Source: an uncultured delta proteobacterium (GTDB lineage: Bacteria; Desulfobacterota; WTBG01; CAIYCZ01). From it: a DNA stretch of 64,000 bases. Position numbers and translations under genes: made by a program. Where the stretch lies: contig CAWDOY010000012.1 of NCBI GenBank assembly GCA_963803975.1, positions 1 to 64,000 on the forward strand, in the 5' to 3' direction. Every line of letters starts with the position of its first letter. Positions within the stretch are counted from its first letter, which is position 1. Below are positions 25,137 through 57,966 of this stretch, in pieces. The notes below the pieces were generated by a model. It was not told the origin of the DNA. It worked only from the letters and a program-made list of their open reading frames with translations, and made no database searches.

Positions 25137-25210
25137 TTTTCTGATAGTAGAACAGGGAGTCAGCCAGTCAGGCTGATTCCCTGTTTTGCTTCTGCCTCTC
25201 TGGAAGTCCC
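25104..25210 (+). repeat. 107-bp direct repeat, copy 1 (copy 2 at 59988-60094)
   Basis: Colinear match with about 6 substitutions by manual alignment. Confidence 0.9.
25151..25187. terminator. Intrinsic terminator-like hairpin downstream of the tRNA fragment
   Basis: AACAGGGAGTCAGCC-AGTCA-GGCTGATTCCCTGTT followed by TT. Confidence 0.65.
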
Positions 25211-26101
25211 TTTTTTGACGCTCCTGAGAAACTGCTCAAAATGATACCACTCAAGGGGGTGACGGCGGACCATGATTTCGAGCCTGTCGGCATACTGCTG
25301 GGCAGCCTGCTGTACGGCATCATGGCGCTGGCTGCGGGATGCGGGTTTGACTGCGCATGGCGGGAAGAGCGTGCAGTGATAGCTGTTTTTGCCACAGCGG
25401 TTTACAAAAAAGATAATCAGCGGTGCGCCTGAAAGCATGGCAAACAGAAACGGCGCCTCGGGAATGTGGACCTCATGCCCGAGAAACCTCACCGCAACCG
25501 ATCGCTGCGACTGGCTCCACAGCCGGTCACCGGTCATTGAAACAAAACCGCCGTCTTTTAAAAAATTAATTCCTTCCAGCGCATCAAAGGGCGAGGCTTC
25601 ATCCTGCTTTGTCGTTATAATTTGAATACCATGCTGCGCAAGGTCCTGCTTCTGCAAGCGTTCTATCTGCTCGCCTTCCTTCTCTCCGAGATACAGAAGG
25701 AGTCGTATGGCAGGGCCATCAGCGCAACCGCCCAGATAGGCAGCGCCAAGCTCCCAGTTGCCCAGATGCGACATGAGCATGATGCCGCCGGTTCCATCAC
25801 GCGCAATGTTATCAATATGCTCCCGTCCTTCAGCCGAATAGGTAATGGTTCCCGGCTTCCGCGCAACCCACCGGTCGAGAAAAACCGTGGTAAAGTTGTG
25901 AAACTGCCGCCAGGCACACCAGAGATGATACGGAAAACCACGGGCGGGGAACAGGGCTTTATAGAAATTGACGCTTATTGCCACCCGCCGCGGAAACAGG
26001 ATAAAATAACCCGTGGCCACACACCAGGCCATGGCACTAAAAAACCACGCGCCGGTGAAGGCTGAGATACACATCAGGCAGCGGTAAAAAAGTTCTTTCA
26101 T
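25160..26101 (-). CDS. Lysophospholipid/lipid A lauroyl-type acyltransferase
   Basis: SHLGNWE, MTGDR, VRFLG, HPLEWYHF. Confidence 0.85.
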   Translation of the reverse strand: MKELFYRCLMCISAFTGAWFFSAMAWCVATGYFILFPRRVAISVNFYKALFPARGFPYHLWCAWRQFHNFTTVFLDRWVARKPGTITYSAEGREHIDNIARDGTGGIMLMSHLGNWELGAAYLGGCADGPAIRLLLYLGEKEGEQIERLQKQDLAQHGIQIITTKQDEASPFDALEGINFLKDGGFVSMTGDRLWSQSQRSVAVRFLGHEVHIPEAPFLFAMLSGAPLIIFFVNRCGKNSYHCTLFPPCAVKPASRSQRHDAVQQAAQQYADRLEIMVRRHPLEWYHFEQFLRSVKKGTSREAEAKQGISLTG

Positions 26102-26122
26102 GATTCCTTGTGCATAATTTTT

Positions 26123-29100
26123 TTACTTCTTTTGGGCAATAAACCAGATTTCCTCCCGGCCCGGGGCGGCAGGTTCTTCACCGGTGATGGAAAAGCCTGC
26201 ACCCGAGATAAGCGCCCTCACCTGCTGCGCCGTGCGAAAAAACGACACAATACCGAGCACCTTGAGCCTTGTTGTTTCAATAAAGCGCTGCACCGGAGCG
26301 CGTTCATGCGAAGGAATCGTTACCCGCACAATGAGCGCCGCACCAGGGAGAAGTTTCTCGCCCAGGCGAATAAGCGTTTCGCGTGCTTCTGCATCATCAA
26401 GGTAATGGAGCATGTCAAGCATGAGCGCGCAGTCGGCCGGCTCCGGTATGTCAGGCATATCAGGCGCGCGGCCAGCCTCTACCCGGCCCCTTTTGCCAAA
26501 AACGCGCGCGGCAGTATGCGCTCTGTCTGCGTCAGGCTCAATCCCGAATACGCGTGCTTCTGGAAACAGCTCAAGCAGCCAGGCTGCCGGCACTCCATAG
26601 CCTGTACCAATATCGATAATAATCCGTGGCGCGTACAGAAAATCTGCAAGCTTCGGGAACATGGGGTCCAGCAGTATTTTGAACCGGGCAAAGAGCCGCG
26701 GGTATGCCTCCATATGACGGTAGTGCAGAAGCACGCGCTGCAGATGCCGCCGTGAGCCGGGCTCAAGTGTTTTGTGAAGAGCCTGAACAGGTGCAAACAT
26801 TTTTCTTAAAACCGGCGGCACGATGGTGACAGCGCCGATGAATGAATAGCCGATGCCCAGAGCAAGTCCCAGCCCTGCGCTTTTGAGCATGGGGTTGTCG
26901 CACACGGCAAGCACGCCGAAGCCAAGAAGCGTCGTGGCAAACGAAAGAAAGACCGACAGGCGGATAAGCCCCATTGACGAATCCTGCTCATCGCCATAGC
27001 GCTGCCAGGCCCGGATAAGGTACAGGGCATAGTCAGTGCCCATGCCGATCACGACCACGGTCACCATCAGCACCGGTATGCCCAGGGGCTGCCCCATGAT
27101 ATTCAGGGTGCCCAGCGTGCAGATAAGAGCAAAAACCGTGGGCGCTATTGCCAGCAGGGTAAGCTGCCAGTCGACAAAGTAAAGAAAGGCCACCATGACC
27201 GTAACCATACCCACAATGAGGCACATCCTGAGGAATGCCGATAGCAGGACCCCTGCGAAGCGGTCGCTGAAAAGCGTTGCGTCAAACATGCGGGCACCGG
27301 CATGCGAAGCTATCTGCCTGTAAAAATTTTCGCGATCATAGTATGGGCCAGGCTTCAGCGTCAGCACCTGCTGCCAGACTTTTTTGTCAGCATACGGCAC
27401 GACGCCGAAAATTTTTGAAACCTCCTCGGGCATGTCTCCGCAGACAGCGTCGCTGCTTCGCAGCATCGCGACAAAAGGCGCAAAAGCATCTGCGGAAAAT
27501 CCGAGCGCGCCGGAGGCATCCGCCAGAGCTCTTTCTGTTGCAGCCGCACGGGCAGGGCTCCAGAAGCGCTGCCAGGCAGCGGCATGCTCGCGCGCCGCTT
27601 CGCTGCCGGGCATGATTGCCGAAGGAAGAAGTCCGGCACGAAGCCCTCCGCGGATAGTTTCCTGCTGCAGAAGCGTCGAAAGCCGGTCAGCGCGCTCCCG
27701 CAGCTCTTCCCTGCTTCCCGCCTCGATTATGAGCTGGACACTGCCGGAGATATCGCCCCATACCTCTTTTATAAGCTGCTCGGCAGCAAGCGTCTCTCTG
27801 GTTACGGCATTGAGCGATGATAGATCGCTATGAAAGTCGGGACGCGCAAAAAAAAGCATGAGGCCGGCAAAGGCCAAAGCCACAGCTGCCTTCCCTGCGG
27901 GCCGCGATGAGGCCAGCTTGTTGACGGCAGCCTGGAGCGGCAGGTATGGCTCATGGGCGGCCGCGGGCATGATTTTAAAGATAAACGGGAAAACGGCATG
28001 GACGAAGATATAGGTGAACACAACGCCAAGCGCGGAGAACTGACCGATTTCGGCAAGAGCAGGAAATCCGCTCAGAGACAGGGCTGCAAAACCCACTGCG
28101 GTTGTGAGCATGGCAAGCAGCCCCAGCGACCAGACCTGCCGTGACGCCTCCAGCCCCCTGGTCTCGCGCGGCCGGTCAAGAAAGAGCAGATAGGCAATGC
28201 CATAGTCCACGGTAAATGAGACGATGGCGCCGCCAAACCCCACGGCCAGCAGCGTAACAGAGCGGTGAAAAAGCGAGTAGACGAAAAACGCCAGCATGGT
28301 GCCAGCGCATGCCGGCAGCAGCGCGAGAAGCCCGATAAGGGGCCGTGGGAAAGCACCAAGCAGCAGAAGCGCAACGGCGACCGTTGAAAATAAAACCGCA
28401 TTTTTCACATTGCGTTTGGCATTTTCTTCATTGTCAAGGGCAGCACGATACGAGCCGACGGGCGTCAGGGTGATCCTGTTTGAGCTTCCAAATTGCCGGT
28501 CAAGAGAAGCGGCAGTGGCGGCGATACAAGAGGTAATCCTGCGGGCAAACTCAGTGTCCGTGCCTGCGCTTGCTGGCTCGGCAAGCAGCAGGCAGTGCCT
28601 GCCATCGGCTGAAACAAGCAGGCCGTTTTCAAAGCGGGCATCCTGCACCGGCGCGAGAAAACGAAGCCGGGCAAGCACAAGGTTGCGCAGTCCCAGCGGG
28701 TCCCGGGCGATCAGCTCTGCCTGTCCGATCCCCTCCAGACCGCCCAGGCCGGAAAGAGTTGCCGCAAGATTTTCGCGAATTTTTTCTGCGGTAAGCAGGG
28801 GGGCGACAGCTGCTACAAGCTCAGCCTGGCTGAACAGCACGGGCAGATTGGCAACACTATAGGCGATAAGCCCGGGCATGAGGCTTTGCATCCGGTCGAG
28901 CCCCACCTGTTTGAAAAGCCGGCTTTTGACGAGTTCCGCCTCGGCACGTTTGGCGCACTCGGTCAGCAGGGCAGGATCCGGCCGCTCAAGGCCCACGTCG
29001 ATCACCACCCGCTCAAGCATGGGGTGATGCTGGAGAATATAGCGGGCATCGGCTAACACCGGATCGGACTGCGGCAGCGCATCCATGATATTGGTTTCAA

Positions 29101-29194
29101 ACCGCAGGCGGCTCATGCCGATGAAAAACAGCATGGCGGTGCCCGCAATGACGAGACCTGCAATCGACCAACGGAAAATATACTTTCCTGCCAT
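26123..29194 (-). CDS. MMPL-family exporter fused to a C-terminal class I methyltransferase
   Basis: RDPLGL, FTVDYGI, GMGTDYAL; C-terminal DIGTGYG and LDMLHYL. Confidence 0.85.
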   Translation of the reverse strand: MAGKYIFRWSIAGLVIAGTAMLFFIGMSRLRFETNIMDALPQSDPVLADARYILQHHPMLERVVIDVGLERPDPALLTECAKRAEAELVKSRLFKQVGLDRMQSLMPGLIAYSVANLPVLFSQAELVAAVAPLLTAEKIRENLAATLSGLGGLEGIGQAELIARDPLGLRNLVLARLRFLAPVQDARFENGLLVSADGRHCLLLAEPASAGTDTEFARRITSCIAATAASLDRQFGSSNRITLTPVGSYRAALDNEENAKRNVKNAVLFSTVAVALLLLGAFPRPLIGLLALLPACAGTMLAFFVYSLFHRSVTLLAVGFGGAIVSFTVDYGIAYLLFLDRPRETRGLEASRQVWSLGLLAMLTTAVGFAALSLSGFPALAEIGQFSALGVVFTYIFVHAVFPFIFKIMPAAAHEPYLPLQAAVNKLASSRPAGKAAVALAFAGLMLFFARPDFHSDLSSLNAVTRETLAAEQLIKEVWGDISGSVQLIIEAGSREELRERADRLSTLLQQETIRGGLRAGLLPSAIMPGSEAAREHAAAWQRFWSPARAAATERALADASGALGFSADAFAPFVAMLRSSDAVCGDMPEEVSKIFGVVPYADKKVWQQVLTLKPGPYYDRENFYRQIASHAGARMFDATLFSDRFAGVLLSAFLRMCLIVGMVTVMVAFLYFVDWQLTLLAIAPTVFALICTLGTLNIMGQPLGIPVLMVTVVVIGMGTDYALYLIRAWQRYGDEQDSSMGLIRLSVFLSFATTLLGFGVLAVCDNPMLKSAGLGLALGIGYSFIGAVTIVPPVLRKMFAPVQALHKTLEPGSRRHLQRVLLHYRHMEAYPRLFARFKILLDPMFPKLADFLYAPRIIIDIGTGYGVPAAWLLELFPEARVFGIEPDADRAHTAARVFGKRGRVEAGRAPDMPDIPEPADCALMLDMLHYLDDAEARETLIRLGEKLLPGAALIVRVTIPSHERAPVQRFIETTRLKVLGIVSFFRTAQQVRALISGAGFSITGEEPAAPGREEIWFIAQKK

Positions 29195-29200
29195 GACAGC

Positions 29201-29941
29201 CTATCTCTGCAAATGCCGACGCGGTTTCATGAAACGGATAAAGGGCGCAATAAATAATCTGCCGAAGATGAGCCGGGTAAACGTAAGTGAGTTGCGCATG
29301 AAATCGACAAACCCGCGGTAATGGGAAATGCGCTCGTTTTTCGGGGCATAGGAAACCCGTATGGGAGCCTCAAGCACCGGGATGCCGTACCAGCACGCCT
29401 TCACCAGCACCTCGACCTCGAATTGAAACCTGCGCGCCCGCACCGGCAGGTCGAGCGTTTCCGGCAGCGGGTAGAGGCGCATGCCGCTCTGCGTATCGGA
29501 AACTGCAGGGCCGCCCGCGGCGCGCACCCAGAAGTTTGAAAATTTCCTCCCGAACCTGCTTGCCCAGGGCACATGCTCGCCGTGCATGCCCTCGCGCCTG
29601 CCCGTAACAATCGGCCGCAGCCCTTCAGGCACTGCCGCTAAGAGTCTGCGTGCGTCTTCGGGCTGGTGCTGGCCATCGGCATCAAGGGTTATGGCCCAAT
29701 GAGCTGTTTGCGCTGCCGCCGCAAAGCCCGTGAGCAGTGCTGCTCCCTTGCCCCTGTTATGCGGATGCCGCAGGATGGTGATCGATGGAATGACCTTTAT
29801 CTTTTCATAGGTGCTGTCTGTCGAGCCATCGTCCACCACAAATACCGGGCAGTTCAGTTCAAGACACTGCCGCACCACAGCGGCGACTGTTTTCTCATGA
29901 TTATAGACCGGAACGATGACTGCTGCGCGCACCTGTTCCAT
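29201..29941 (-). CDS. Glycosyltransferase family 2
   Basis: IVPVYNH, VDDGSTD, NRGKGAAL, LDADGQH, DTQSG. Confidence 0.9.
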   Translation of the reverse strand: MEQVRAAVIVPVYNHEKTVAAVVRQCLELNCPVFVVDDGSTDSTYEKIKVIPSITILRHPHNRGKGAALLTGFAAAAQTAHWAITLDADGQHQPEDARRLLAAVPEGLRPIVTGRREGMHGEHVPWASRFGRKFSNFWVRAAGGPAVSDTQSGMRLYPLPETLDLPVRARRFQFEVEVLVKACWYGIPVLEAPIRVSYAPKNERISHYRGFVDFMRNSLTFTRLIFGRLFIAPFIRFMKPRRHLQR

Positions 29942-29946
29942 GAGCT

Positions 29947-31660
29947 TCACCTCACCGCAGCGGGAGCAAAGGCCACGGCCCATGTGCCCGGCCCCGTATG
30001 CACGCCCGTCGTGAGAGACAACGGCCGCACCAGCAGTTCTGTGTTTGGAAAACGGCGCTGCACGGTTGCGGCTACTTCCTCAACAAAGCTGCGGTTGTCC
30101 GTGTACTGAAAAAGTATCAGGCCATAGGCCTCAGCCGGAAAAACTTCTGCGATGCGCTCAAGGGCAAACCGCACCTGCTCAGAGCGGTTTCTGACCATGC
30201 CGACCTTTTGCGCCCCGTCTTTTTGCGGGCTTATGACCGGTTTAAACTTCAGCATATCACCAAACAATGCCCCGGTTTTTGACAGCCTGCCGCCTGCGGC
30301 AAGATAGTGCAGCTGATCGATAAATATATACTCGCGTGCAAGCTCCAAAGCTGTTCGCGCGCATGTTTCAACCTCGCCGATGCCTAGTCGCATGCCGGGC
30401 ACAGCGCGCCGCGCAGTGCACGGCAATTGCAAGCCGTCCTGATGCTGTGCCGGTGTCTATAATAGTGAAACGGTTTTCTGGATCATGTTCCTGTTTCCAG
30501 CCAAGGGCGGTCTTAAAATTTCCCGTATAGACCGAACCAACGCACAGGTACAGCACGCTTGCATGCAGTTCGAGCGCTCCGGCGTAGTGCTGTCGCCGCT
30601 CATCCAGCGATGCCTGCGCCGTGGAGCAGGGAATGCCTGCGCGCATGGCTTTATACATGTCGGCAGGCGAGCAACAGGTTTCCGGCAGGCTCGTGTCGCC
30701 CATGGTTATATAGCTGTCAAGCAGGGCTATCCCCAGCATGGCAGCATCTTCGCGGGTGACGGAGCCTGCGGCATCCGTCATGATATGGACGACAGAGGCT
30801 GAACCCGGTTCTGCAAACATCCCCGTCTGGGCCGCGAGATCATCATCGGCCCAGGCAACAATACGTCCGCTTGCGGCAAGCTCGCGTTGAGCCTTTTCAC
30901 GGTCAGGTGCATGCAGGTGCACCTTGATATACTCACCGCTGCGCATGACAACAGTGCTTTCGCCCATATGCTGAAGCTTTGCTTCGGCGCTGCCGTCACA
31001 CTTCAGCACCGCGTCGATACAGAAACCCGCGGCTGTTTCCCGGCTGAACGTGTCGGCTATGCGGAGGCATTCTTTAAAGCAGGCGCGGGCCGGAGAAAAG
31101 CACTGCTTCGTGCCGGCAAGGCAGCTGAAAAAACCGTCAAAAAAAAGATACATGCCCAGGGCTCCGGCATCGACAACATGGGCCTGCTCAAGCACCGGCT
31201 GCTGACAAACGGTGTCGGCAACCGCATGTTCAAGGGATTGAAGAAGAGCTTTCGTCCACGCGGCGTCTGCTTCGGATGGGATACAGCGGCACAGCTCAGC
31301 AAGCCGGTCAAAAAAACTCAGCATGGTGCCGGGCCGGGGCTCAGTCACCGCCCGGTATGCCGCATCTCTGCCGCGCTGCACGGTCGCGGCCCAATCCTGA
31401 AGCGATGCCATGCACGCGAACTCCTCCAGAAAGCGGGCGGCGATATTGCCTGAATTGCCGCGTGCCGCAAGCAGCAGGCTCCGGCAGAGCTCCCCGGTAT
31501 CGGCATGCTCTTTTCGCAGCGGAGCAAGGCTTATAACAAGATTGCGGCCCGTGTCGCCGTCAGCCACGGGAAAGACATTGATCCGGTCCAGAAGCTGTGA
31601 CCAGACCGTTACCGTTTCAGCGCCCGCGGCAAGGGCTTTGTAAAAACCGGGCCGTGTCAC
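29947..31660 (-). pseudogene. DAK2 (FakA-like) + DegV (FakB-like) fusion, frameshifted near 30400
   Basis: INVFPVADGDTG, ARGNSG, VDAGALG, KVHLH, MTDAAGS, STAQAS; the second frame has GGRL, LKFKPVI, GVHTGPG. Confidence 0.8.
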
Positions 31661-32079
31661 GGCATCCCCAGCGCAGCGCGTATGGCTGCGGGTATCTCGA
31701 AGAGCATGTCCCCTTCGGGCATTTGCACCGCAACCTGCTCGGTCCTGCCTTTAACGCAAACTCTGCCGTCGGCCTTGAGCCTGACTTCAAAGTCCACAAC
31801 GAGCTTTTCCTTGCAGTCTGCAACGGTGGCCCTGCAGGTGAACTCGTCGCCGTATCGAAGGGGGTAGATATGCTTGGTGGCTGTTTTGATGATAGGGAAA
31901 ACGCAATTGCTTTTTACATAAAATTCGTGCAGGTCTATGCCGACACTTCCCAGCAGGGCAGAGCGGGCGTCTTCAAAATATTTAAAATAGTTGCCGTGCC
32001 ACACTATCTGCATGGGGTCAAGCTCGTAGAAGGCCACGGTATGCTCAATCTCAAAGCTCGGATGATGCTCGCGGCTCAT
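31657..32079 (-). CDS. Acyl-CoA/ACP thioesterase (4HBT/YbgC family)
   Basis: ELDPMQIVWHGNYFKYFEDAR. Confidence 0.85.
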   Translation of the reverse strand: MSREHHPSFEIEHTVAFYELDPMQIVWHGNYFKYFEDARSALLGSVGIDLHEFYVKSNCVFPIIKTATKHIYPLRYGDEFTCRATVADCKEKLVVDFEVRLKADGRVCVKGRTEQVAVQMPEGDMLFEIPAAIRAALGMP

Positions 32080-33668
32080 GACTTTTGCACTCCTGCCAGC
32101 ACTGCAAAGAGTTCGCCGCGGCCGATAGCCTGCACCATGGCTTCAATGTCGCGGTCAAGGGGGCGGTCGCACTCAAGGCGTGGTGAAACCAGGCGTATGC
32201 TTTTCACCAGAGCCTGAAGCCGTGGGCGCTTGTGCAGATTGCCCCGCAGCTGACAGGCCTGAGCAGCGGCCAGCAGATGAATGGCAAGCACACGCTCCAC
32301 AAGCTCGCAGTTACGCCGGGCATCGCGGGCTGCAATGGTGCCCATGCTCACCTTGTCCTGATTATGGGATTCCGAGGAACGCGAGAATGAAGCGGCCGGC
32401 ATGGTATTTTTCAGGGCCTCTGCGGCAAGGGCTGAGGCGCTGATGGACATGGCCTTGAAGCCGTGATGGAAAAAATGCTCATCTCCGGCAACACCCACCA
32501 GATCTTCGGGCAGCCCGCGGTTGAACTGAGGATGCACCAGCAGCAGTATCTGCCGGTCGGCCATGTCGGCAACCGAGGCAAGGGCAGCTTTCAGGCCGTC
32601 CATGGCAAATGCGATATGGCCGCCGTAAAAATTGCCGCTCATGAGGTGTTCGCCGGTTGCAGGGTCAAATATCGGATTGTCGTTTGAGCTGTTGGTCTCG
32701 ATCTCAACCCACTGCTCAACCCATGCCAGGGCATCACACAGCACACCGGCAATCTGCGGGGTGCAGCGCACCGAATACGGGTCCTGCAGGGCATGGGGGC
32801 CGTCATCCTCCAGCGCGCGCACATCACTTTTTGCGGCAAGCAGGTGCTCGAGGCATCGGGCCACATACGCCTGCCCGCTGAATGGTTTCGCCCGGCTGAT
32901 GGCAGGATGGAAATGGCACACCTTGCCCTTGAAAGCATGAACGGTAAGGGCCGTAGCGCACAGGGCTGCATGCAGTATGGAACGGGCACGCATAACAGAC
33001 ATAACAGCAATGCCGGTCATGGTGGAAGTGCCATTGACCATGGCAAGGGGCTCCTTCGGATCAAAGACATACGGGGCTATGCCGGCTTTTTTGAGCGCCA
33101 GACGAGCGCTCATGCGCCTGCCCTTATAAAAAGCCTCCCGCTCACCTGCCATGCATGCAGCCACATAGGACATGGGCGTGAGGTCACCCGATGCTCCAAC
33201 CGATCCTTCTCCCGGCACCACGGGCGTAACACCCTTATTGAGCATATCGGCCAGCTGCTGCAGCAGCGCCACGGATACTCCCGAATAACCCGTTGCCAGG
33301 CAGAGCATGCGGCACAGCATGGCAGCACGGGTCTCTTCAATGCCTATGGGCTCGCCCGTACCGCAGCCGTGAAACGGCAGCGGGTTTGCGGTGGTGCGCA
33401 GGGCAGCATCTTTGGGCAGCCTTTTGCCGCAGGATTTGCCGAAGCCCGTATTCACGCCGTAAACTGCATCGCCCCTTTTGAGCGCCCGCTGCAGAAAAAC
33501 CTGCGAACGCGCCATGCGAGCCCGAAACAGTTTCTGTGTGCTGAGCGCTACGTGTGCGCGGCCCTGTGCAACGAGCTGAATCTGCTCGCATGACAAAAGC
33601 CCCTGCCCGACGATAACAACATTATTTTTTGTCATATAAGAATTCCTGTTCGTAAGAGTAATCGTCAT
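32076..33668 (-). CDS. MIO-dependent aromatic amino-acid ammonia-lyase (HAL/PAL/TAL family)
   Basis: VYGVNTGFG, GSVGASGDL (MIO), QDPYSVRC, NDNP, GNFYG, HNQDKVSMG. Confidence 0.9.
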   Translation of the reverse strand: MTITLTNRNSYMTKNNVVIVGQGLLSCEQIQLVAQGRAHVALSTQKLFRARMARSQVFLQRALKRGDAVYGVNTGFGKSCGKRLPKDAALRTTANPLPFHGCGTGEPIGIEETRAAMLCRMLCLATGYSGVSVALLQQLADMLNKGVTPVVPGEGSVGASGDLTPMSYVAACMAGEREAFYKGRRMSARLALKKAGIAPYVFDPKEPLAMVNGTSTMTGIAVMSVMRARSILHAALCATALTVHAFKGKVCHFHPAISRAKPFSGQAYVARCLEHLLAAKSDVRALEDDGPHALQDPYSVRCTPQIAGVLCDALAWVEQWVEIETNSSNDNPIFDPATGEHLMSGNFYGGHIAFAMDGLKAALASVADMADRQILLLVHPQFNRGLPEDLVGVAGDEHFFHHGFKAMSISASALAAEALKNTMPAASFSRSSESHNQDKVSMGTIAARDARRNCELVERVLAIHLLAAAQACQLRGNLHKRPRLQALVKSIRLVSPRLECDRPLDRDIEAMVQAIGRGELFAVLAGVQKS

Positions 33669-45702: not shown

Positions 45703-45708
45703 ATTTTA

Positions 45709-46105: not shown

Positions 46106-46555
46106 CTATTTGGGAAACATTTCCCAGAGCCGCACGGTCCCCTCATCAACGGCAACCACGCTGCCTGCGGCATTGAGCGCGCAGTGTCGGGTAAACCCGG
46201 CACAGATCATGTTCCCGGTTTCGCCGTGGGTGATGATATAATCAAAACGCACTTTTACCCGCGCTATCTCAGCGGGCCGCGTATAAATCAGCATCAGGTC
46301 GTCATAGTAGAGGGGTTCGTAAAAGTTGATGCCGAGGTCCACGATGGGATATACATAGCCCCTGGCTTCAATCTCCTTGTACGGATAGTCGGCCTCCCGC
46401 ATGAGCGATGTTCTGCCGAACTCGAAGTAGCGCAGGTAGTTGGCATGATAGACAACACTTGAGCGGTCCGTGTCGGCATAGAGCGTGCGCTGCGTGCAGC
46501 AATGCCAGACAAGCCCGGTATCTGCGTCGCGCGATATACCGCTCGTCTTCAGCAT
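46106..46555 (-). CDS. Acyl-CoA thioesterase (YbgC-like)
   Basis: YADTDRSSVVYHANYLRYFE. Confidence 0.85.
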   Translation of the reverse strand: MLKTSGISRDADTGLVWHCCTQRTLYADTDRSSVVYHANYLRYFEFGRTSLMREADYPYKEIEARGYVYPIVDLGINFYEPLYYDDLMLIYTRPAEIARVKVRFDYIITHGETGNMICAGFTRHCALNAAGSVVAVDEGTVRLWEMFPK

Positions 46556-46587
46556 ACGGCACGGGCCTGAAAGGCTTTGGTTTCATA

Positions 46588-47854: not shown

Positions 47855-47894
47855 GAACCGGATTAATTTAAAGAATTTTTTTGTAAGCATCATA

Positions 47895-49158: not shown

Positions 49159-49163
49159 ATGTC

Positions 49164-50225: not shown

Positions 50226-51287
50226 CCTTGCGGCGGATCAACAGGCCCGCGGCAGAGGTTCTCCCCTTTTTCATACCCCGTGACCCAGACCGCCAGATAG
50301 GTGTCCACATAATCAAGCCATGCCTTGAACGTGTCCGGGTCGGTGGCATGGCGGTAAAGCTTTGAGGTCACCACGGCGCTGCCGGCAGCATAGTGCCTGC
50401 AATCAACGCAGTCCGTATCAGGCACACAGCAGGAGGCAGCGCGGTCCCAGGTGAGATCGGAGCGGTACTGCCGGAACGAGCGGCCAAGGCCGATATCGGT
50501 CGACGGGTTCATGCGCGGGTACGGGCATGCAGTAGAGCGCATGCAGCCCGAGCTTGTGCGTATGGGCTACAGCGCTGTAGGGCGAAAAGAGCACCTGCCG
50601 GGGATAGCGCTCAAGAAGTTCAAGCATTGTCTCCCGCGTCCGTGCAAGGGTTTCCTCCGTGTGCCGCAAGAGGCCATCATATGCCTCGGGTGCTGAAAAC
50701 ATATTAAATGTCACCTTGCAGCCATTGGCGCTCAGCTGCTCAATCACCGGGGCCGCCTCGTCGATATTGTCGCGCGTAAAGGTATAGACAAACACGGCCC
50801 GGCTGTCGCCCCGGTAATTATCTATCTGTTTTTCAAGCATATGCTTCTGCTTGCGCACCCGCAGGCTGGTGGCGTCATTGCCCCAGACCGACACGTGAAT
50901 CTTGTAACCAACGGATGCCTCGATGCGCTTTACACCATTGGTGGCGATGCAGCCAAGCGGTATCTCATCATAGCAGGCCTGCAAAAGCCCGGGCACAAGG
51001 GCAGGCTCGGCGCCGGCCAGCACCACGAAGGTGATGCCACGGGCTTTTTCCTGCCGCATCAGTTCGCGCCACACCGTCGGGTCTGCGTTGTCAATGGCAA
51101 ACTGCTTGTCGCCGGCATAGTAGTAGCAGCCGTCGCAGCGTATATTGCAGCGGTTTGTCATGTCATAGGTCGATTCGCGCAGGAAGAAATAGTTGCGTAC
51201 CTGCTCCCAGCGCTTGCGAACCGCAGGCTCGGCAAGCAGGTCGGCAAATCTGTATTTCGGGGTCGAGGAGGGCTGTGCAGCGCTCAT
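50213..51287 (-). pseudogene. Radical SAM protein, paralog of 49164-50225, frameshifted near 50530
   Basis: STYDMTNRCNIRCDGC, GAEP; C-terminal CPYPR..CCVPDTDCVDC in the next frame. Confidence 0.8.
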
Positions 51288-51301
51288 AATGCGATCACGT
51301 A

Positions 51302-51574
51302 TCAGGCTTTTGCCTGAAGCCGCTCCTGGATGTAGGCTGCTATCAGGCGTATGGCGCGCAGTTTGGGGTAGTCGTCCTCATCGATTTTGATGCCGTACTC
51401 ATCCTGCAGCACCAGCACGATGGTGGCAAGGTCCATGCTGTCGATGCCGATTTCATCCACAAGATCAAGATCAGGATCAAACGTTTCCGCCGTGATATCC
51501 TGCAGCTTCAGCTCGGTGATTATGATTTGCGCGACACGCAGTTGAAGCTCCTTTTCATTAATACCAGCAGACAT
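51302..51574 (-). CDS. Acyl carrier protein
   Basis: IGIDSMDLATI; RBS AGGAGG. Confidence 0.85.
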   Translation of the reverse strand: MSAGINEKELQLRVAQIIITELKLQDITAETFDPDLDLVDEIGIDSMDLATIVLVLQDEYGIKIDEDDYPKLRAIRLIAAYIQERLQAKA

Positions 51575-51613
51575 TCAACCTCCTTTATTAGCAAACAGTG
51601 GTCTTATGTAACA

Positions 51614-52001
51614 TTATTCAGCAAGCCGCTCGACAGTAAGCGTGCCGGTGCAGGCCGCCTCGCCGCCCAGCAGAATCGTGAAATTGTAGGCAGATACCGC
51701 TTTCTTTCTGTTCGCGCTTTAGCGCCAGTGTAAAGGGTTCCTCAGGCCTGACAGGCTTTTTAAACCGTACCCGCTTCACAGCCTTCAGCCGTATGCGCTT
51801 TCCCTCGTGCGCTTCTTTCTGCCGCGCAGCATCAAAGGCCATGGCGATCATGGCAATGCCGGGCAGTATCGGCTGACCGGGGAAATGCCCGTCAAACCAG
51901 GGGGAGCCCCACGGCGCAGTTGCGAGAGCCTCCAGCCGGTCAGGCTCATCGTTGGAACCACATTCAAGCGTATGCCATTTGGAAAGCATATATCTTAACA
52001 A
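51614..52001 (-). pseudogene. FabA/FabZ-like dehydratase, frameshifted near 51690
   Basis: WFDGHFPGQPILPGI, VRFKKPV; natural C-terminus (FTILLGGEAACTG..AE*) lies in another frame. Confidence 0.7.
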
Positions 52002-52207
52002 AATCTGACCTGATAGGGCAGATCATTCAGTGACTGTGTTCTTAATTATTAATAAAATGTATATGAATCGACCGTGTAGAGCCTGTGTCATCCTTCAAAG
52101 GATCACCTGTGCTGTTGCAAAACAATCATTAGGTGTGCGCAAGTATATGAAAAAACATGCGCACAGTCAATTGAATTGCTGTCAGACGCTCGATTTACGA
52201 AGCTTTT

Positions 52208-53028
52208 TCAGCCAGCCGGCTGCATGACGGGCCTGCCGATCAGTTGTTCAAGCGACACCGGCGCAAGATTTTTTTCTGCAAGCCCTGCAAGAAGCGCTTC
52301 GATCTCCTGCAGCCACATATCGACGGAGGCAGTCTCCATTTGGCATACAGTCATGCAGCAGGATAATATCATCAGGCCGGACTTTTTTCAGTATCCTTTC
52401 AGCCAAGCCCTCGAAGCGGCGATTGCCGGCGTCAAAGCCGCGGCAGCTGAAGGTGACACAATGCAAGCCCTGTTGTTTTAAAATGCCTCCCAGCTTCGGA
52501 TTGGTGATTCCTGCGGGCGGCCGGAAAACAAGCGGCCGTATTCCAAAGGCGCTTATGGCCTCCTGGGCCATGCGGATTTCCGACGCAATGTGTCTGCCGG
52601 GACCGCAGCATTAACAGCACGTCATGGCAATAGGAATGATTGCCCACATCATGGCCTCTGGCGATAATCTCCCGCATAAGATCCGGATGGCCCTGCGCTT
52701 TTTCCCCGATGACGAAAAAGGTCGCTTTCGCCTTGTTTTTCTCCAGCAGTTCCAGAATCCGGGGGGTTGCGGCAGGATCAGGACCGTCATCAAATGTCAG
52801 GGCAACCATAGTGCCGCCCGTACATCCGCGGCTGATGACCGGCAAAAAGAATCCAGCCTGCGGGAAAAACGGCGCGGCCAGATAGCACGCAACAAAGATA
52901 CCCAGCGGCAGCACCCAGAGCCACTCATTGACCATTGCCAGAACTATTGCCGCACCGGCGCACAGCAGGGCGATTTTCACGACCGGCAGCAGTGAAGATG
53001 AAGAAGGGGCTGATTTTTGCATATCCAT
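52208..53028 (-). pseudogene. Polysaccharide deacetylase (NodB) with membrane anchor, two frameshifts (~52590, ~52330)
   Basis: LTFDDGP, ATFFV, GNHSYCH, FRPPAG, IILLHD. Confidence 0.8.
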
Positions 53029-55202
53029 TAACCCAGGATCTCCACAGCGGTTATGCACTGGCCCAGCCCCAGCAGCAAAATTCCCCGGCCGTGCAGGGAT
53101 CCCGGCGCTGCACGGCACAGCCCTGCGGGCAACTCTCCCGCCCTGACACAGTCAACTGCTATGACGGCTGCCACAGCCGATGCGGAGGCGAACTCGCCGG
53201 TAATTTCCCGGTAATCGATAACCGGGCAGTCGCAGCCCGCGGCGTTTATAAAAAGCGCAAGCTGCTCCCTGCCCTTGTCGCGCGAGGCAGCCGGAATGCC
53301 TGCAAAGACAGCCCCGTACTTTTTGCTGATATTTTCAGACCCGCCCAGCACCAGCATGAGGTGTTGCATCGTCCGGTCACTGCAGGGATCATTGGAAATA
53401 AAAAGCGGCGCGATGCGAACTCCCCTTGCCGCATCAATTGGCTGAAGCAGCAGGCCGCAACCGCCGTCGGAGGCAATCGAGGCGCAGGCCGCGGAGGCGT
53501 CAAACAGCGGGGTCAATTTTTCATGGTATTCATCGGCGCCGATGACCATGGTCGTACCCGGGGCCTCATGGGCGATTAATCCTGCGCTGAAAAGCGCCTG
53601 TTCAAATGAATAATCGCCATCGGTCAGGGTAATGTTCGGGCCCTTTGCCTGAAAGTGGATTGCCACCTGCCCTGCGGGGGCATTATGCACGGAGCCGATA
53701 AAATCAATGGGGCTGGTGAAACGCTCTTCCGTTGAAAAAAGCCGCGAAAGAAAATCATGTGTTTCAGACAGCCCTCCCCAGCCGGTGCCAAAAAAAACTG
53801 AAGCTGGCGGTTCTGCACAGCCTGAGCTGCCGTGGGCGGCAATAGCCAGAGATAAAGCCATGCGCGGCAGCCGCTTGAGCCGCCGCACGGCACTTTCATT
53901 GAGACCCGCCATAATAGCCTTCGCCGGGGCCATGCCGCTGATGCCTGCCCCCTCACGCAGACCTGCAAGCGTCTGCGCAAAATTGCCTGCGCCGGTGAGG
54001 CAGGAGCTGCCCAGAACGGCAAAGGCGGTGCTGCGGCTTTTGGTTTGCACGGGTACGCCGGTTGCGGCGGGTTTGCTGAGCACGATTGATGCATTGTTGC
54101 CGCCAAAGCCGAAAGCATTGGAAAGCACTGTCGATACAGGCCTGCGAAGCGGCGAGCTGAGCGGGATCAGCTGCAGCGCAGGATCAGGCAGGCAGCATCC
54201 GGTGTTTGCCGGCAGTATGCCATGGACAATACTTAAAACGGAAATGGCCGCATTGATCGCGCCTGCTGCGCCCAGTGTATGCCCCACCGCGCCCTTGATG
54301 GATGATGCGGGCGGAAGCGGCATAGTACGGAAAAGGGCCTGCAGCGCCCGGGCCTCAGCCGCATCATTGTCAGGTGTTCCCGTGCCGTGCAGATTTATAT
54401 AATCAATATCTGAGGCTGCGCAGCCTGCACCGGCAAGAGCCTCGCGCATGGCTTGCACTGCCCCTGCACCGTCAGGATGGGGCGCGGCCGGGTGATAGGC
54501 ATCACAGGTCAGTCCGACAGCCAGCACCTCGGCCAGTGCCCCTGCAGGGGGATCAGTCGCAGCCTCTAAAAGAAGCATGGCAGCCCCCTCCCCGACCGAC
54601 ATGCCGCGTCGATCCTTGTCAAAGGGGCGGGCGCCTGCCGGATCGACAAGCTGCAGAGAGTTGAATCCGTAGTAGGTTAAGCGGCACAGGCCGTCCACGC
54701 CTCCGGCAAGCACGCGCCGGGCTTTGCCGCTTTTCAAAAGCTCCAAAGCTATTTTTAAGGCCACCATGCCGGATGAGCAGGCAGTCGATACGGTCAGCAC
54801 CGGGCCGTGGCACCCAAGAGCGCCAGCCAGGTAGTGGGCCACGGTGCCAGTGCCATGATAGCGAAACTTCTCTGGATCAGGAGCATTGTTTTTTAAAAAA
54901 AGTTCGCTTGCAGGCATGCCGCCGGTGGTGACCCCTATGACCATGGCATCCGGAGGGCCATGGGAAACGGCCATCGCCTCACGCGCTGCAATAAGCGCAA
55001 GGCCGTGGGTTCGCGGAACAGTGCCGGGGATGAAGGATGTGACTTCACCTGATGGCAGAGGGGGCTCGACTGATGAGGGAAAAAGAGCAAGCGGCGCAAG
55101 TCCGCATGCCGCTGTTTCAAGAGCTGCAATGGTTTGAGAAGCGTTTTCGCCGATGGGGCTTATGATCCCCAGCGAGGTAACAAAAACCCGCATGCTGCTC
55201 AA
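53028..55202 (-). CDS. Ketosynthase fused to a chain-length-factor-like domain
   Basis: N-half TACSSG, HGTGT, GHTLGA; C-half RRLKRL, TGWG, SPIDFIGSVHNAPAG with DGDYSFE in place of the catalytic Cys motif. Confidence 0.85.
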   Translation of the reverse strand: MSSMRVFVTSLGIISPIGENASQTIAALETAACGLAPLALFPSSVEPPLPSGEVTSFIPGTVPRTHGLALIAAREAMAVSHGPPDAMVIGVTTGGMPASELFLKNNAPDPEKFRYHGTGTVAHYLAGALGCHGPVLTVSTACSSGMVALKIALELLKSGKARRVLAGGVDGLCRLTYYGFNSLQLVDPAGARPFDKDRRGMSVGEGAAMLLLEAATDPPAGALAEVLAVGLTCDAYHPAAPHPDGAGAVQAMREALAGAGCAASDIDYINLHGTGTPDNDAAEARALQALFRTMPLPPASSIKGAVGHTLGAAGAINAAISVLSIVHGILPANTGCCLPDPALQLIPLSSPLRRPVSTVLSNAFGFGGNNASIVLSKPAATGVPVQTKSRSTAFAVLGSSCLTGAGNFAQTLAGLREGAGISGMAPAKAIMAGLNESAVRRLKRLPRMALSLAIAAHGSSGCAEPPASVFFGTGWGGLSETHDFLSRLFSTEERFTSPIDFIGSVHNAPAGQVAIHFQAKGPNITLTDGDYSFEQALFSAGLIAHEAPGTTMVIGADEYHEKLTPLFDASAACASIASDGGCGLLLQPIDAARGVRIAPLFISNDPCSDRTMQHLMLVLGGSENISKKYGAVFAGIPAASRDKGREQLALFINAAGCDCPVIDYREITGEFASASAVAAVIAVDCVRAGELPAGLCRAAPGSLHGRGILLLGLGQCITAVEILG

Positions 55203-55480
55203 GGGCTCGTCTCCGGCCGGTTCTGGTGTATATATTCCGCCAGGGCTTTCAGTGAGGCAAAGACCCTGATGCCAAGCTCCTTGTTGTCGATCCGAAGTCC
55301 ATAATCCTTTTCGATCATCATCACCAGCTCAAGCACATCTATGGAGTCAAGCCCCAGCTCGCCGCCCACAAGCCGGGCTTCGGCATCGATACTGTCGGGG
55401 GCGACGCTTATGAGATTGAGCGTAGCGACTATTTTGACTTTGAGTTCGCCTATGAGTTCTTCCATTGCGCCTTCCATCAT
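55199..55480 (-). CDS. Acyl carrier protein
   Basis: LGLDSIDVLEL. Confidence 0.9.
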   Translation of the reverse strand: MMEGAMEELIGELKVKIVATLNLISVAPDSIDAEARLVGGELGLDSIDVLELVMMIEKDYGLRIDNKELGIRVFASLKALAEYIHQNRPETSP

Positions 55481-55484
55481 CGCA

Positions 55485-55880
55485 TCACTCGACTTTCACA
55501 ACATCTGCCGGCCGCTGCGGTCCTCCGGCAGATAGCTTTTCACATGCTTTTTTAATCGACCATTTCATGAATATCGTGGCGTAATCCTTTCCTACAATAT
55601 ACATCCCCACCAGAAAAACCACATGTGCAGTTCCATACGTAAGCGGCCCGCCGATGATAAGGACCAGGGGCTGCTTGAGATACAGGGAGAGAAAGCCGAA
55701 GAAGGCAACCGCCGGCCAGCCGATGACATAGCTGAACAGCACCAGTACAATACCGAACTGCTCACGGGCCGTGGGCTTCCGCTTCAGACAGCGCAGGTCA
55801 AGCTCCTCCTGCAGAATGCGCTGAAAAAACTGCTTCTGTACAAGATTTTTCCGGCAATTTTGAACCAGCTTTTTAATCAC
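55485..55880 (-). CDS. Small two-TM hypothetical membrane protein
   Basis: Two hydrophobic segments; first gene after the promoter. Confidence 0.65.
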   Translation of the reverse strand: MIKKLVQNCRKNLVQKQFFQRILQEELDLRCLKRKPTAREQFGIVLVLFSYVIGWPAVAFFGFLSLYLKQPLVLIIGGPLTYGTAHVVFLVGMYIVGKDYATIFMKWSIKKACEKLSAGGPQRPADVVKVE

Positions 55881-55921
55881 GCCTTACAACGCCCTGCGTT
55901 CATGTTTCCGCTTGTCGTCAC

Positions 55922-55950
55922 ACTATAGACAAAAAGATCGCCACTGTCAA
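55922..55950 (-). promoter_or_regulatory. Sigma70 promoter for the FAS/PKS operon
   Basis: TTGACA-N17-TATAGT on the minus strand. Confidence 0.7.
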
Positions 55951-56087
55951 CACGGCAGCGTCTTCAGGACTTTCCCCAAAATTTATAGTGCTGTCATTAC
56001 GAGAGCGGACGCAAAATCGGATGTACGACAAAAGAAAAATGCGTGGGGTATGCGGGGAAGCAAAAGAATAAAACAGGGAGCCGGGAG

Positions 56088-57281
56088 TTACCCCTTTGCG
56101 GTCATGAAAGCGTCGACTATCACGTCGATTTCCGCCACCAGGCGCGCCGCTTCGTCGCGATCGTAGCGCACAGCGCGCTCGGCATAGCGATGGCAGTAGC
56201 GACAGTCATCGCAGAAGGTCTCCGCGCATTGGATTTCCCGGAAACCCTCTAAAAAATCCGCAAGCATTGCGTTGTCGATGAAGACGTTGAGTGCCAGCAG
56301 GCGCTGCCGCAACCTGAACATTCGCAGTGTCAGGCGCCGCTCTTCCGTGTCGAGCTGGAACAGGCTTTTGCGGCTCTGCTCCTCGATGCTTGGGTGGAAT
56401 CCGTTAGGATCTCCCAGCAGCTCGAGGGAGAGAATATCAAGCAGGTTTCCGTCGTAACGCCGGGAAGCGTATGCCTTTGTGGCACGCAAGAGCCATGCTG
56501 TCGAGCGCGATCGATCAATGATCTTAAACTCCTCGACACCCAGGGCCTCGTACAGGTGTAAGTCCTCTGGACGGATCCACCGGCTCGCGAGGAAGAGCTC
56601 TGGCTGCACCAATCGCCGGCGGGTACACTGCCATAGGTAAGAATCAAGCAGGGCGTGCGTTTGTTTGCCGCCCTGATTCTCCTGGGAGGCGTGCCCCACG
56701 CTGCATGCGTGCTCGGCGAGGTAATGGCAATGATAGATGCATGATATGTTCGCGAAGAGCACGATGCCGCACGAGAGGTTTGCGCGGATGCGCTCAAGCG
56801 CTGGGAAGTCACGGTTAAACTCACTGTATGGCAGGATCAGCGGATCGACGCCAAGGGATTCCTGGTACTTCAGTCTGGGCAGATTGGTGGGCCAACTGAG
56901 CACACTTCCCCGGATGCTCAATTCCGGGTAGTTGCGCCGAACCAGCGCCACAAGCGCTAAGTTCGAGATCGACACGTTGTCAACCCCAAGTTCAACTAAC
57001 CGCCCGATAAACGCGAGCAGGCGCTCTTTGCCCTCCTGCGTCTGCTCAAGATTTCCCAGGCACGGTGCATTGAGCAGGTAACTGAACGACAAGCCACGCT
57101 TGTGGGCTGCCTGGATGTAAGCGGCGGCGGCATCAAGGTCCACTGAAGGCAGCACGGAGCCCGCCCTGCCTCCACCCACGAGGTCATAGGGCAGCTTTGC
57201 ATAGACCGAAGTCACCTCGGGAATTTGCGCGAGTCCGTCAAGAAGTTCGATGTCCCAATTCGCAGCAACGCTCAATTTCAT
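56088..57281 (-). CDS. U32-family Fe-S protein
   Basis: GGGR, YLLNAPC, FANISCIYHC, QCT, WIRPEDL, FKIIDR, C-terminal C..CDDCRYC. Confidence 0.75.
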   Translation of the reverse strand: MKLSVAANWDIELLDGLAQIPEVTSVYAKLPYDLVGGGRAGSVLPSVDLDAAAAYIQAAHKRGLSFSYLLNAPCLGNLEQTQEGKERLLAFIGRLVELGVDNVSISNLALVALVRRNYPELSIRGSVLSWPTNLPRLKYQESLGVDPLILPYSEFNRDFPALERIRANLSCGIVLFANISCIYHCHYLAEHACSVGHASQENQGGKQTHALLDSYLWQCTRRRLVQPELFLASRWIRPEDLHLYEALGVEEFKIIDRSRSTAWLLRATKAYASRRYDGNLLDILSLELLGDPNGFHPSIEEQSRKSLFQLDTEERRLTLRMFRLRQRLLALNVFIDNAMLADFLEGFREIQCAETFCDDCRYCHRYAERAVRYDRDEAARLVAEIDVIVDAFMTAKG

Positions 57282-57303
57282 GGCCGTTCTCCAGAAGCGC
57301 GGA

Positions 57304-57966
57304 TCATACCGGCTTAATTCCCGTCACTCGCAAACCGAGTGCTGTTTCGACAACCTCGCATCCGGCGAGTTCCGTCATGTTGAGTAAAGCCTTTACCTCT
57401 GCCATGGTGTAGGCAGCGCCGATTGAGGCTCGGAGACTTTCCAGGATCAGTTCGGACTTCACCCTTTGCTCGAGGAAGTTGCAGGCCGAGCGTGACAGGT
57501 CCCGGCGAAGATCGGACACGTATAATCTTCCGCCGGGCTTCAGGACCCTCCAAAGCTCGGTGAAGATCGTACCTGGATTGAGCCACTCATGCAGCGAGCG
57601 GCTGGTAAAGACCGCGTCGAAGGCATTGTCCTCAAAGGGTATTGCCGCCGCGGAGCCAAGGAGTTGTTCAACGCGGTCGGCGAGTCCCAGTTCCCGCGCG
57701 TGATTCCTGGCTATCGCGACCATGTCCGGGCTTATGTCAAGACCGACGAGGCGGGTATCCCTTGTTTGCAGCAACCATTCCAGCCCGAGATAACCGGGTC
57801 CCGATCCGACCTCCAGCGCAAATCCACTCACAATGCCATTGAGCAGGAGATCCCCGGTCTCAAGCCATCCCTGCTCTCGGAGAGATGCCTGCATCCGGTC
57901 ATAGTTTTCGGCATAGGCACGACCTGAAATCGTATGGTTTGTCTCCGGAACCCTTGGTTTTGTCAT
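57304..57966 (-). CDS. Class I SAM-dependent methyltransferase
   Basis: LEVGSGPG, GLDISPDM, IPFEDNAFD, LHEW, LKPGG. Confidence 0.9.
   Translation of the reverse strand: MTKPRVPETNHTISGRAYAENYDRMQASLREQGWLETGDLLLNGIVSGFALEVGSGPGYLGLEWLLQTRDTRLVGLDISPDMVAIARNHARELGLADRVEQLLGSAAAIPFEDNAFDAVFTSRSLHEWLNPGTIFTELWRVLKPGGRLYVSDLRRDLSRSACNFLEQRVKSELILESLRASIGAAYTMAEVKALLNMTELAGCEVVETALGLRVTGIKPV

Follow-up and report, generated by a model that had tools for sequence, protein, structure and literature searches.

The stretch of DNA analysed here, called the window throughout, comprises 64,000 nucleotides (positions 1 to 64,000 of contig CAWDOY010000012.1, assembly GCA_963803975.1) from an uncultured delta proteobacterium of the Desulfobacterota. 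It harbors a gene island of about 35 kb (25138-59987), flanked by two copies of the 3′ end of a tRNA-Asp gene, in which an aryl-polyene gene set stands together with type II fatty-acid synthase (FAS-II) and radical S-adenosylmethionine (SAM) enzymes. Aryl-polyene clusters and the FAS-II/radical-SAM clusters of anaerobes are already known as kinds. To these the window adds a full set of genes between island ends that are now placed, evidence from reads on its frameshifts, a direct negative test against the clusters of anammox bacteria, and leads in the form of a FakA-FakB-like and a U32-family gene. Its product is likely an outer-membrane glycolipid not yet described, and not the ladderanes of anammox bacteria. 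Gene identity, order and conservation are read directly from the sequences, and from these we infer every reaction proposed below.

The island is bounded by a direct repeat of 114 nt with 92% identity (25104-25217 and 59988-60101), which contains the 3′ half of tRNA-Asp(GTC) and its terminator; the intact tRNA lies on contig C17 of the same genome. A congener (G001) presents the empty site, an intact tRNA-Asp followed directly by DNA matching the window from 59988 onward, and neither radical SAM enzyme A (rSAM A) nor the ApeR-like ketosynthase (KS) was found in this genome (91% complete). The repeat on either side and the empty site of the congener together mark the locus as a tRNA-anchored genomic island. 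The tRNA calls come from ARAGORN at default thresholds, lowered thresholds giving noise, and from the tRNA-Val/tRNA-Asp pair of G001, in which the Asp gene agrees with the one called by default on C17. The GC content is 0.562 in the island and 0.505 in the genome, and no integrase was found among the island open reading frames (ORFs) scanned with Pfam and NCBIfam. A preliminary description of this DNA, made from the letters alone, had drawn a cluster from 25160 to 57966; the placement of the tRNA-Asp repeat bears out its left end and moves the right end to 59708-60101.

One other locus (L095) carries the cluster at the same site as the window, so that either gain or loss may have produced the present distribution. 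Four genomes of a genus in another family (G013, G014, G018, G020) hold a cluster of the same order, mostly at 60-97% identity; in this genus the ApeR-like KS is 93-96% identical against 67-77% for the flanking helicase, which suggests that the cluster moved as a unit. The window's nearest relatives are Thermodesulfobacteriota/Syntrophales-type anaerobes, and near-identical DNA occurs in freshwater and sediment metagenomes. As a separate observation, G013 (contigs C4, C21 and C35) shows two copies of the radical-SAM and U32 regions of the cluster, reflecting either duplication or contamination of the bin.

Pfam and NCBIfam scans, read with the translations, recovered every item that the preliminary description had listed between 25160 and 57966 (Table 1), and divide its four radical SAM enzymes into two with and two without a B12-binding domain. 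Overlooked there were the DAK2-DegV fusion, the U32 protein, two SAM methyltransferases (one fused to the MMPL exporter), two further lipoproteins, a small membrane protein and the island ends. Nor did that description set the cassette with the twin radical SAM enzymes apart from the other genes. The polyketide synthase (PKS)-type dehydratase, unfused in the window, is fused to a phosphopantetheinyl transferase (PPTase) in all three relatives scanned.

Table 1. Features of the island and its ends, with window positions, strand and the basis of each call (KS, ketosynthase; ACP, acyl carrier protein; DH, dehydratase; TE, thioesterase)
Feature	Position	Strand	Basis or remark
Left island boundary: tRNA-Asp(GTC) 3′-half copy and terminator hairpin	25092-25217	+	
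LpxL-like acyltransferase, like ApeJ C-terminal domain	25160-26101	-	PF03279; 27% to ApeJ
MMPL/RND exporter (ApeM-like) fused to C-terminal SAM methyltransferase	26123-29194	-	Pfam; 23% to ApeM
GT2 glycosyltransferase, like ApeJ N-terminal domain	29201-29983	-	33% to ApeJ
DAK2-DegV fusion (fatty-acid kinase FakA-FakB-like), split near 30400	29947-31660	-	
Hot-dog thioesterase TE1 (ApeK-like)	31657-32079	-	Pfam; BLAST to ApeK
MIO aromatic amino-acid ammonia-lyase, putatively Phe or Tyr	32076-33668	-	ASG motif; NQD motif as in 2ohy
B12-binding radical SAM 1	33857-35119	-	Pfam
Predicted lipoprotein adjoining LolA, ApeN-like by position only	35128-35814	-	no sequence match
LolA-like carrier (ApeL-like)	35811-36470	-	Pfam; BLAST to ApeL
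FabG/ApeQ-like ketoreductase	36619-37347	-	48% to ApeQ
ApeP-like dehydratase DH1	37397-37855	-	PF22817 weak; 28% to ApeP
ApeH-like acyl-ACP/AMP ligase	37970-39328	+	28.5% over 452 aa to ApeH
B12-binding radical SAM 2	39545-41047	+	Pfam/NCBIfam
CrtI/CrtD-like flavoprotein	41116-42591	-	Pfam/NCBIfam; 22% to anammox cluster I enzyme
PKS-type double hot-dog dehydratase, ends approximate	42630-43520	-	
PlsC/ApeD-like acyltransferase, 3′ end approximate	43530-44306	-	33% to ApeD
ApeR-like ketosynthase	44320-45552	-	40% to ApeR; tree sister 100/100
ACP1, grouped with ApeR-like KS and PlsC	45709-45969	-	Pfam/NCBIfam
Cassette thioesterase TE2	46106-46555	-	after KS_b in 61/65 loci
FabF-like KS_b, triad intact, extra base 47062	46588-47855	-	tree, alignment
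FabF-like KS_a, triad intact, extra base 49141	47895-49150	-	tree, alignment
Radical SAM A (rSAM A), 332 aa, CxxxCxxC and C...CC-x5/6-CxxC, predicted twitch-type fold	49164-50162	-	
Radical SAM B (rSAM B), paralog of A, same cysteine motifs, extra base 50530	50213-51287	-	
ACP2	51302-51574	-	then rSAM B in 71/71 loci
ApeI/FabZ-like dehydratase DH2, extra base 51689	51618-52001	-	36% to ApeI
NodB-type polysaccharide deacetylase, extra bases 52332 and 52591	52248-53118	-	Pfam
Fused KS-chain-length factor (ApeO-ApeC-like)	53028-55202	-	40% ApeO, 29% ApeC; tree 98/97
ACP3 (ApeE-like)	55199-55480	-	42% to ApeE
Small membrane protein, no family	55485-55880	-	recurs in 25/80 loci
U32-family cysteine-rich protein, candidate O2-independent hydroxylase	56088-57281	-	Pfam U32
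SAM methyltransferase directly upstream of U32 gene	57304-57966	-	Pfam
Predicted lipoprotein, phosphodiesterase/alkaline-phosphatase-like (lead only)	58146-59708	+	
Right island boundary: second tRNA-Asp 3′-end copy and terminator	59988-60101	+	

About ten frameshifts in the assembly, together with the missing TIGR04072-like gene and the missing integrase, could be taken to mark a decayed and silent remnant. To weigh this, contigs of five public runs were aligned over 41000-60000 and 49900-53200; they differ from the window by 1-3% substitutions and thus come from close relatives, not necessarily from the window's strain. The extra bases at 43521, 43727, 47062, 50530, 51689, 52332 and 52591 are absent in all four runs aligned there, that at 42773 in three of four, and that at 49141 in all three covering runs (in one of them in only part of the depth), and at least five further single extra bases in spacers are likewise missing from other runs' contigs. 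All nine tested gene breaks are extra single bases that other runs lack; intact copies thus exist in the population, the cluster is probably intact, and the breaks in the window are probably assembly error. The DAK2/DegV break near 30400 was compared with relatives rather than reads, and these have a single ORF of 559-584 aa. Catalytic residues are intact and L095 holds an intact, near-identical copy of the cluster core, so the remnant reading is already largely refuted and we give it hardly any credence. Contigs of an RNA run (X19) fall in 27 of the 30 bins between 41000 and 60000; this uncontrolled figure is not counted as expression.

The first of the island's two major components is an aryl-polyene gene set. 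Compared by BLAST (E <= 0.01) with apeA-R of Escherichia coli CFT073, named as in Table 1 of PMC8253772, the window holds homologs of 14 of the 18 Ape proteins (ApeB, C, D, E, H, I, J, K, L, M, O, P, Q and R) at 23-48% identity, ApeB being marginal (E 0.009). These include ApeI/ApeP, ApeQ and ApeM of the ape core listed in the Fig. 1 legend of 10.1101/2020.12.19.423268. In a KS tree of 25 sequences one window KS is sister to ApeR and another to ApeO, and the chain-length factor is recognised in the C-terminal half of 53028-55202 (PF13723, E 3e-10; match to ApeC at E 1e-4). ACP1 is ApeF-like by position and by a PRK05350 match below cut-off. No enoyl reductase was found in the island. Homology and KS phylogeny thus agree with the proposals of the preliminary description that the export and attachment genes resemble those of aryl-polyene clusters and that an aryl-primed, unreduced chain would be attached to an outer-membrane glycolipid. 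The lipoprotein at 35128 was considered as ApeN and set aside (E 0.75). The DAK2-DegV fusion is the only copy found in the genome; FakA-FakB and PlsY constitute an acyl-phosphate route. We take the ASG and NQD residues of the ammonia-lyase, the latter as in the tyrosine aminomutase 2ohy, at their presumed meaning. Elsewhere, in Desulfosarcina widdelii (L147:8679-11885), the ApeH-like ligase carries a fused 2Fe-2S/RACo (reductive activator of corrinoid proteins) module, a gene structure that hints at a dedicated reactivator of B12 enzymes.

The second component is a cassette which, from its sequences, comprises ACP2, twin twitch-type radical SAM enzymes, two active FabF-like KSs (KS_a and KS_b) and TE2. 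Of 3199 candidates from searches with rSAM A, 1946 are homologs, the best 120 sharing no less than 78% identity, and relatives are encoded in at least 559 of the 589 matching stretches listed from the genome collection; carriers include the cultured D. widdelii and D. variabilis. Gene order was counted in the 80 best loci, which span several phyla but are closest matches with kin included, so that the counts overstate independence. DH2 is followed by ACP2 in 66/71 loci, ACP2 by rSAM B without exception, rSAM B by rSAM A in 77/77, rSAM A by KS_a in 76/80, KS_a by KS_b in 64/77 and KS_b by TE2 in all but four, exceptions being mostly locus ends. The catalytic Cys is kept in KS_a (77/77) and KS_b (63/63), as are both His residues, and together the two form a clade of their own (100/100), apart from the anammox FabF2 and FabFmut. 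rSAM A and B are paralogs of about 26-30% identity that share the extra cysteine motif C...CC-x5/6-CxxC (58/58 A proteins and 63/63 B proteins) and match no NCBIfam family above cut-off. An alignment-based AlphaFold model of rSAM A (predicted local distance difference test score, pLDDT, 92.6; a single-sequence model at pLDDT 32 was discarded) is closest to BlsE (7vob, Z 17.8), SkfB (6efn, 17.5) and anSME (4k36 anSMEcpe, 16.1), at root-mean-square deviations of 3.5-4.0 Å over 240-254 residues and 14-17% identity. By this model rSAM A would belong to the twitch/SPASM class, with CxxxCxxC, putative auxiliary-cluster cysteines and a partial TIM barrel. BlsE acts on a nucleoside, SkfB and anSME on peptides or proteins. 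A complex prediction for rSAM A and B scored 0.00 and speaks neither for nor against binding. Two other assignments were rejected: Tes/GDGT-MAS lies only mid-list among the structural matches (Z 12.7), and the HpnH model, considered for HpnH-like adenosylation, matches no window gene at E 1e-8. We found no description of the twin cassette in the literature searched, with subscription journals and bioRxiv supplements out of reach.

Within the phylum, rSAM A occurs in 28 of 351 sampled genomes, and the other 27 twin-radical-SAM genomes all encode a homolog of the B12-binding radical SAM 1 of the export block. The clade of this enzyme at 66% identity or more is found in carriers only (25/25), and 25 non-carriers have a form at 48-64%. 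Two non-carriers that were read have a second type of cluster, in which the twin pair is missing: G625 with the full Kuenenia-like layout and G566 with part of it. TIGR04072 is matched above cut-off in 20/27 carriers. In the window, scores against this model (cut-off 360 bits) are 39.8 and 92.7; the genome's best, 318.7, lies outside the island in an operon (G000 C2:31044-41277) that also encodes a second B12 radical SAM and, judging translations by eye, an isopropylmalate synthase/dehydratase-like set and LuxE/LuxC-type enzymes.

This distribution bears on an unlikely alternative in which two products are made, one a plain aryl-polyene lipid and the other, built apart from it by the cassette, a radical-modified fatty acid or phospholipid, the genes merely co-travelling. 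Two Spirochaetota genomes hold the cassette with PlsY, FabD and ligase as a block of its own, the aryl-polyene genes of L065 and L151 begin about 15 kb beyond the cassette, and TE2 suggests release of a free acid. Further, the presence of PlsY (36 of the 80 loci) is independent of that of the ApeR/PlsC block (19 loci), the two occurring together in 11. However, the cassette is without its own ketoreductase and would share FabG, the carrier-restricted form of B12 radical SAM 1 ties the export block to the cassette, and in the window the whole set lies within one island.

A further alternative, to which we give distinctly less weight, is that the cassette builds the starter: a cyclic or aromatic acyl group would be made on ACP2 without oxygen and extended by the KS-chain-length factor, with ammonia-lyase and ligase as an optional second entry. 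The 17/27 carriers without a close ammonia-lyase match, which keep the polyene machinery in loci that were read (G390), fit this idea, and two active KSs with a thioesterase-fold protein could pass on a short cyclised unit. The window island, however, has both lyase and cassette, and the ApeH-like ligase could load another aromatic acid. PlsY, a glycerol-phosphate acyltransferase, stands directly after the dehydratase/cassette in 32 of 53 loci, so that a lipid tail is indicated instead.

The preliminary description had also seen in the cluster the signature of candidate ladderane clusters. Our comparison used 61 genomes from the order of G247, anchored by its 1591-bit match to hydrazine synthase 5c2v (single members may not all be anammox; PF18582 was dropped as a marker because it is not specific), with cluster I taken from two of them. 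PMC10139942 and 10.64898/2026.05.19.726425 define cluster I, which the former describes as confined to ladderane producers. Its second KS is dead (FabFmut), whereas KS_a and KS_b of the window both keep C-H-H; for its flavoprotein and FabZ the genome's best matches lie on other contigs (window flavoprotein E 2e-6), and amxACP has no match at E 1e-4. The cassette's twin pair is found in 0/61 anammox-order genomes. No full-length match to rSAM A occurs among the 61; 44 have a weak N-terminal match (best E 3e-17) to a single-copy radical SAM, rejected as an ortholog at 29-37% over at most about 180 N-terminal residues, and in L167 no lipid genes adjoin it. Of the outside relatives of rSAM A encountered, this protein (L144, L167; 340-360 aa, no named family) is the closest.

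True ladderane lipids, with concatenated cyclobutane rings, are accordingly very improbable as the product. B12 radical SAM 1 and the cluster I enzyme, about 30% identical, do share a broad clade (SH-aLRT 99), and relatives carry TIGR04072, yet the same clade includes two unrelated genes of the window's genome that match equally well. PMC2649909 reports no detectable ladderanes in Desulfotalea psychrophila, which carries a related cluster. With no active/dead KS pair, a separate KS clade, no flavoprotein or FabZ orthology and TIGR04072 scores below cut-off, the ladderane signature falls away, and what stands is kinship in gene types with the FAS-II/radical-SAM clusters of anaerobes. Rattray 2009 (PMC2649909) had already noted related clusters in deltaproteobacteria, and in the operon tests cited from PMC4790861 no new fatty acid was formed when 34 candidate genes were expressed in E. 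coli. PMC9902471 and PMC13635244 only report such cluster calls in Desulfobacterota. An active/dead KS pairing, which the window cassette is without, occurs in a second FAS-II locus of the window's genome (G000 C14:52000-65000, L186), which lies behind a sigma-54 two-component pair and holds a KS, a triad-less KS, FabG, two extended short-chain dehydrogenases/reductases and a double FabA/FabZ protein.

The U32 protein of the island matches the Pfam family at E 3e-6 (27.1 bits, cut-off 22.4), with C181, C185, C219 and H191 invariant in nine sequences and an extra C-terminal four-Cys motif. Its cysteine spacing presumably departs from the UbiU pattern, and no PDB sequence matches it. Among 8000 scored proteins 1040 are homologs. 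In 37 metagenomic U32 loci the same methyltransferase lies directly upstream in 25, and 14 are in or beside this cluster type, at no fewer than four different positions; several adjoin KS III and ACP. A close copy occurs in 4 of 42 cassette genomes, all of one genus, and the module is therefore accessory. PMC10990095 shows that UbiU/V take their oxygen from prephenate and extends this, as a proposal, to the U32 proteins in general; by analogy, U32 and methyltransferase would likely hydroxylate and O-methylate the ring without oxygen. In the literature within our reach (again short of subscription journals and bioRxiv supplements) U32 proteins are not described in aryl-polyene clusters. Two other U32 settings deserve mention. 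Away from any ACP cluster, L102, L103, L104, L108, L109 and L110 have a row of thioesterase, methyltransferase, U32 and chorismate mutase(/prephenate dehydratase), which makes this row a compact candidate for aromatic hydroxylation that depends on prephenate. In L107, L117 and L106, close U32 relatives adjoin KS III, ACP and an ABC transporter, resembling what we take to be dialkylresorcinol/flexirubin-type clusters.

On balance we favor as product a glycophospholipid that bears an aryl polyene and has a third acyl chain modified by radical chemistry while on an ACP of its own, the three ACP/KS lines matching the three acyl positions of a lipid of the aryl-polyene lipid (APEL) type. In 10.1101/2020.12.19.423268 the Xenorhabdus APEL carries the aryl polyene on GalNAc-phosphate-glycerol, a conjugated C26:5 chain at sn-2 installed by ApeD, and plain C14/C16 at the third position; roles of ApeD, ApeJ, ApeF and ApeM follow this source and PMC8253772. 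The ammonia-lyase would supply cinnamate or 4-coumarate, which the ApeH-like ligase would load onto ACP3, and KS-chain-length factor, FabG, DH1 and DH2 would extend this starter to the aryl polyene. ACP1 and the ApeR-like KS would make a second conjugated chain that PlsC/ApeD places on sn-2. ACP2, KS_a/KS_b and the PKS-type dehydratase would make a third unsaturated chain, from which, bound to ACP2, the twin radical SAM enzymes would abstract hydrogen. We tentatively prefer oxidative C-C bond formation (ring closure or cross-link) for that step over desaturation or rearrangement, at somewhat less than even confidence. TE2 would free the third chain, FakA-FakB convert it to acyl-phosphate and a PlsY transfer it to sn-1, the plain C14/C16 site in Xenorhabdus. 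GT2, deacetylase and LpxL-like transferase would add the amino sugar and aryl chain, and MMPL, LolA and lipoprotein would export the lipid. The B12 enzymes likely C-methylate.

Several observations weigh against this scheme, which is weakest at the PlsY missing from the island, at FakA-FakB and the lyase with their patchy occurrence, and at the step assigned to the twin enzymes. The island has neither PlsY nor PPTase, and the genome's only PlsY-like match is weak and split; FakA-FakB lies within 10 kb of the cassette in only 4/80 loci, and the ammonia-lyase is found in 10/27 carrier genomes, so the aryl head may not be general. ApeA, ApeF, ApeG and ApeN have no BLAST match in the window, and ApeO sits on a long branch of the KS tree. 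Assigning the ApeR-like KS to the sn-2 chain follows gene order only; 10.1101/2020.12.19.423268 gives this chain to ApeF alone, and PMC8253772 reports that the main lipid is still made without apeR. The fold neighbours of rSAM A do unrelated chemistry, the model giving a class and not a reaction. The island is without a TIGR04072-clade gene, of which the four nearest genomes have an ortholog beside the methyltransferase; its product may therefore differ or be incomplete. None of the 38 other cassette genomes has a close U32 homolog (four have a 36-37% match), and the 6/37 U32 loci followed by chorismate mutase are close kin.

A more specific version, possible but doubtful, holds that the twin enzymes are new ACP-dependent radical SAM cyclases that close small or medium carbocycles in the fatty-acyl chain as it grows, to give a ring-bearing aryl-polyene glycolipid. 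If so, such a lipid would be common in sulfate reducers and syntrophs, the system would be a culturable model of radical ring formation on acyl-ACP, a chemistry proposed and never shown for ladderanes, and U32 would add an oxygen-free hydroxylation of the aryl head. Solving the cassette would put a name to a lipid that is widespread in sediment anaerobes, and would account for many "ladderane" cluster calls in non-anammox genomes (PMC9902471); the cassette offers the ACP with its likely partner enzymes and a natural pair of congeners with and without it.

Beyond the left repeat, as read from window 1-25092 and from G000 C17:66052-68486, the DNA also ends in a tRNA-Asp 3′ copy and is probably a second, tandem island. 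FAD-oxidase/CCG Fe-S modules recur in it, and it further encodes a TetR regulator, a phosphotriesterase-family gene and an RND transporter accompanied by DUF1302/DUF1329 and YCF48-like genes. Just outside the repeat, 24379-24879 encodes a protein of 166 aa, predicted to be exported, for which neither Pfam nor NCBIfam gives a match.

Among known systems, UbiU/UbiV, RlhA and TrhP share the U32 domain and conserved cysteines with the window protein, chorismate mutase adjoining some relatives, whereas the window U32 sits in lipid clusters. The twitch/SPASM enzymes BlsE, SkfB and anSMEcpe are, unlike rSAM A, not paired with an ACP. Anammox cluster I (kuste3603-3608) has in common with the island ACP, dehydratase, two FabF-like genes, flavoprotein and B12 radical SAM, and differs in its dead second KS and separate KS clades; its B12 enzyme matches the window at about 30%, tied with the two non-cluster genes. 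Kuenenia kuste3335-3352 and the syntenic Desulfotalea, Geobacter and Pelobacter clusters (Rattray 2009, PMC2649909) share the gene types KS/chain-length factor, ACP, FabG and MMPL, and also GT2, deacetylase, flavoprotein and B12 radical SAM, at 19-42% in the anammox genome with this gene order (G210). Clusters of that type include TIGR04072, a kuste3343-type radical SAM and a gene resembling phenylacetate-CoA ligase, and do not have the twin pair; the kuste3343-like enzyme has no match in the window's genome at E 1e-12, and the ligase matches contigs other than the window's. The nearest likeness is to the aryl-polyene/APEL clusters of E. coli CFT073 and Xenorhabdus doucetiae, with 14 homologs, KS phylogeny and no enoyl reductase found. 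Compared with these, the window has ApeO and ApeC fused, ApeJ split into two genes, and in addition an ammonia-lyase, deacetylase, flavoprotein, FakA-FakB, two B12 radical SAM enzymes, U32 with its methyltransferase, and the whole third line of ACP, twin radical SAM enzymes and KSs.

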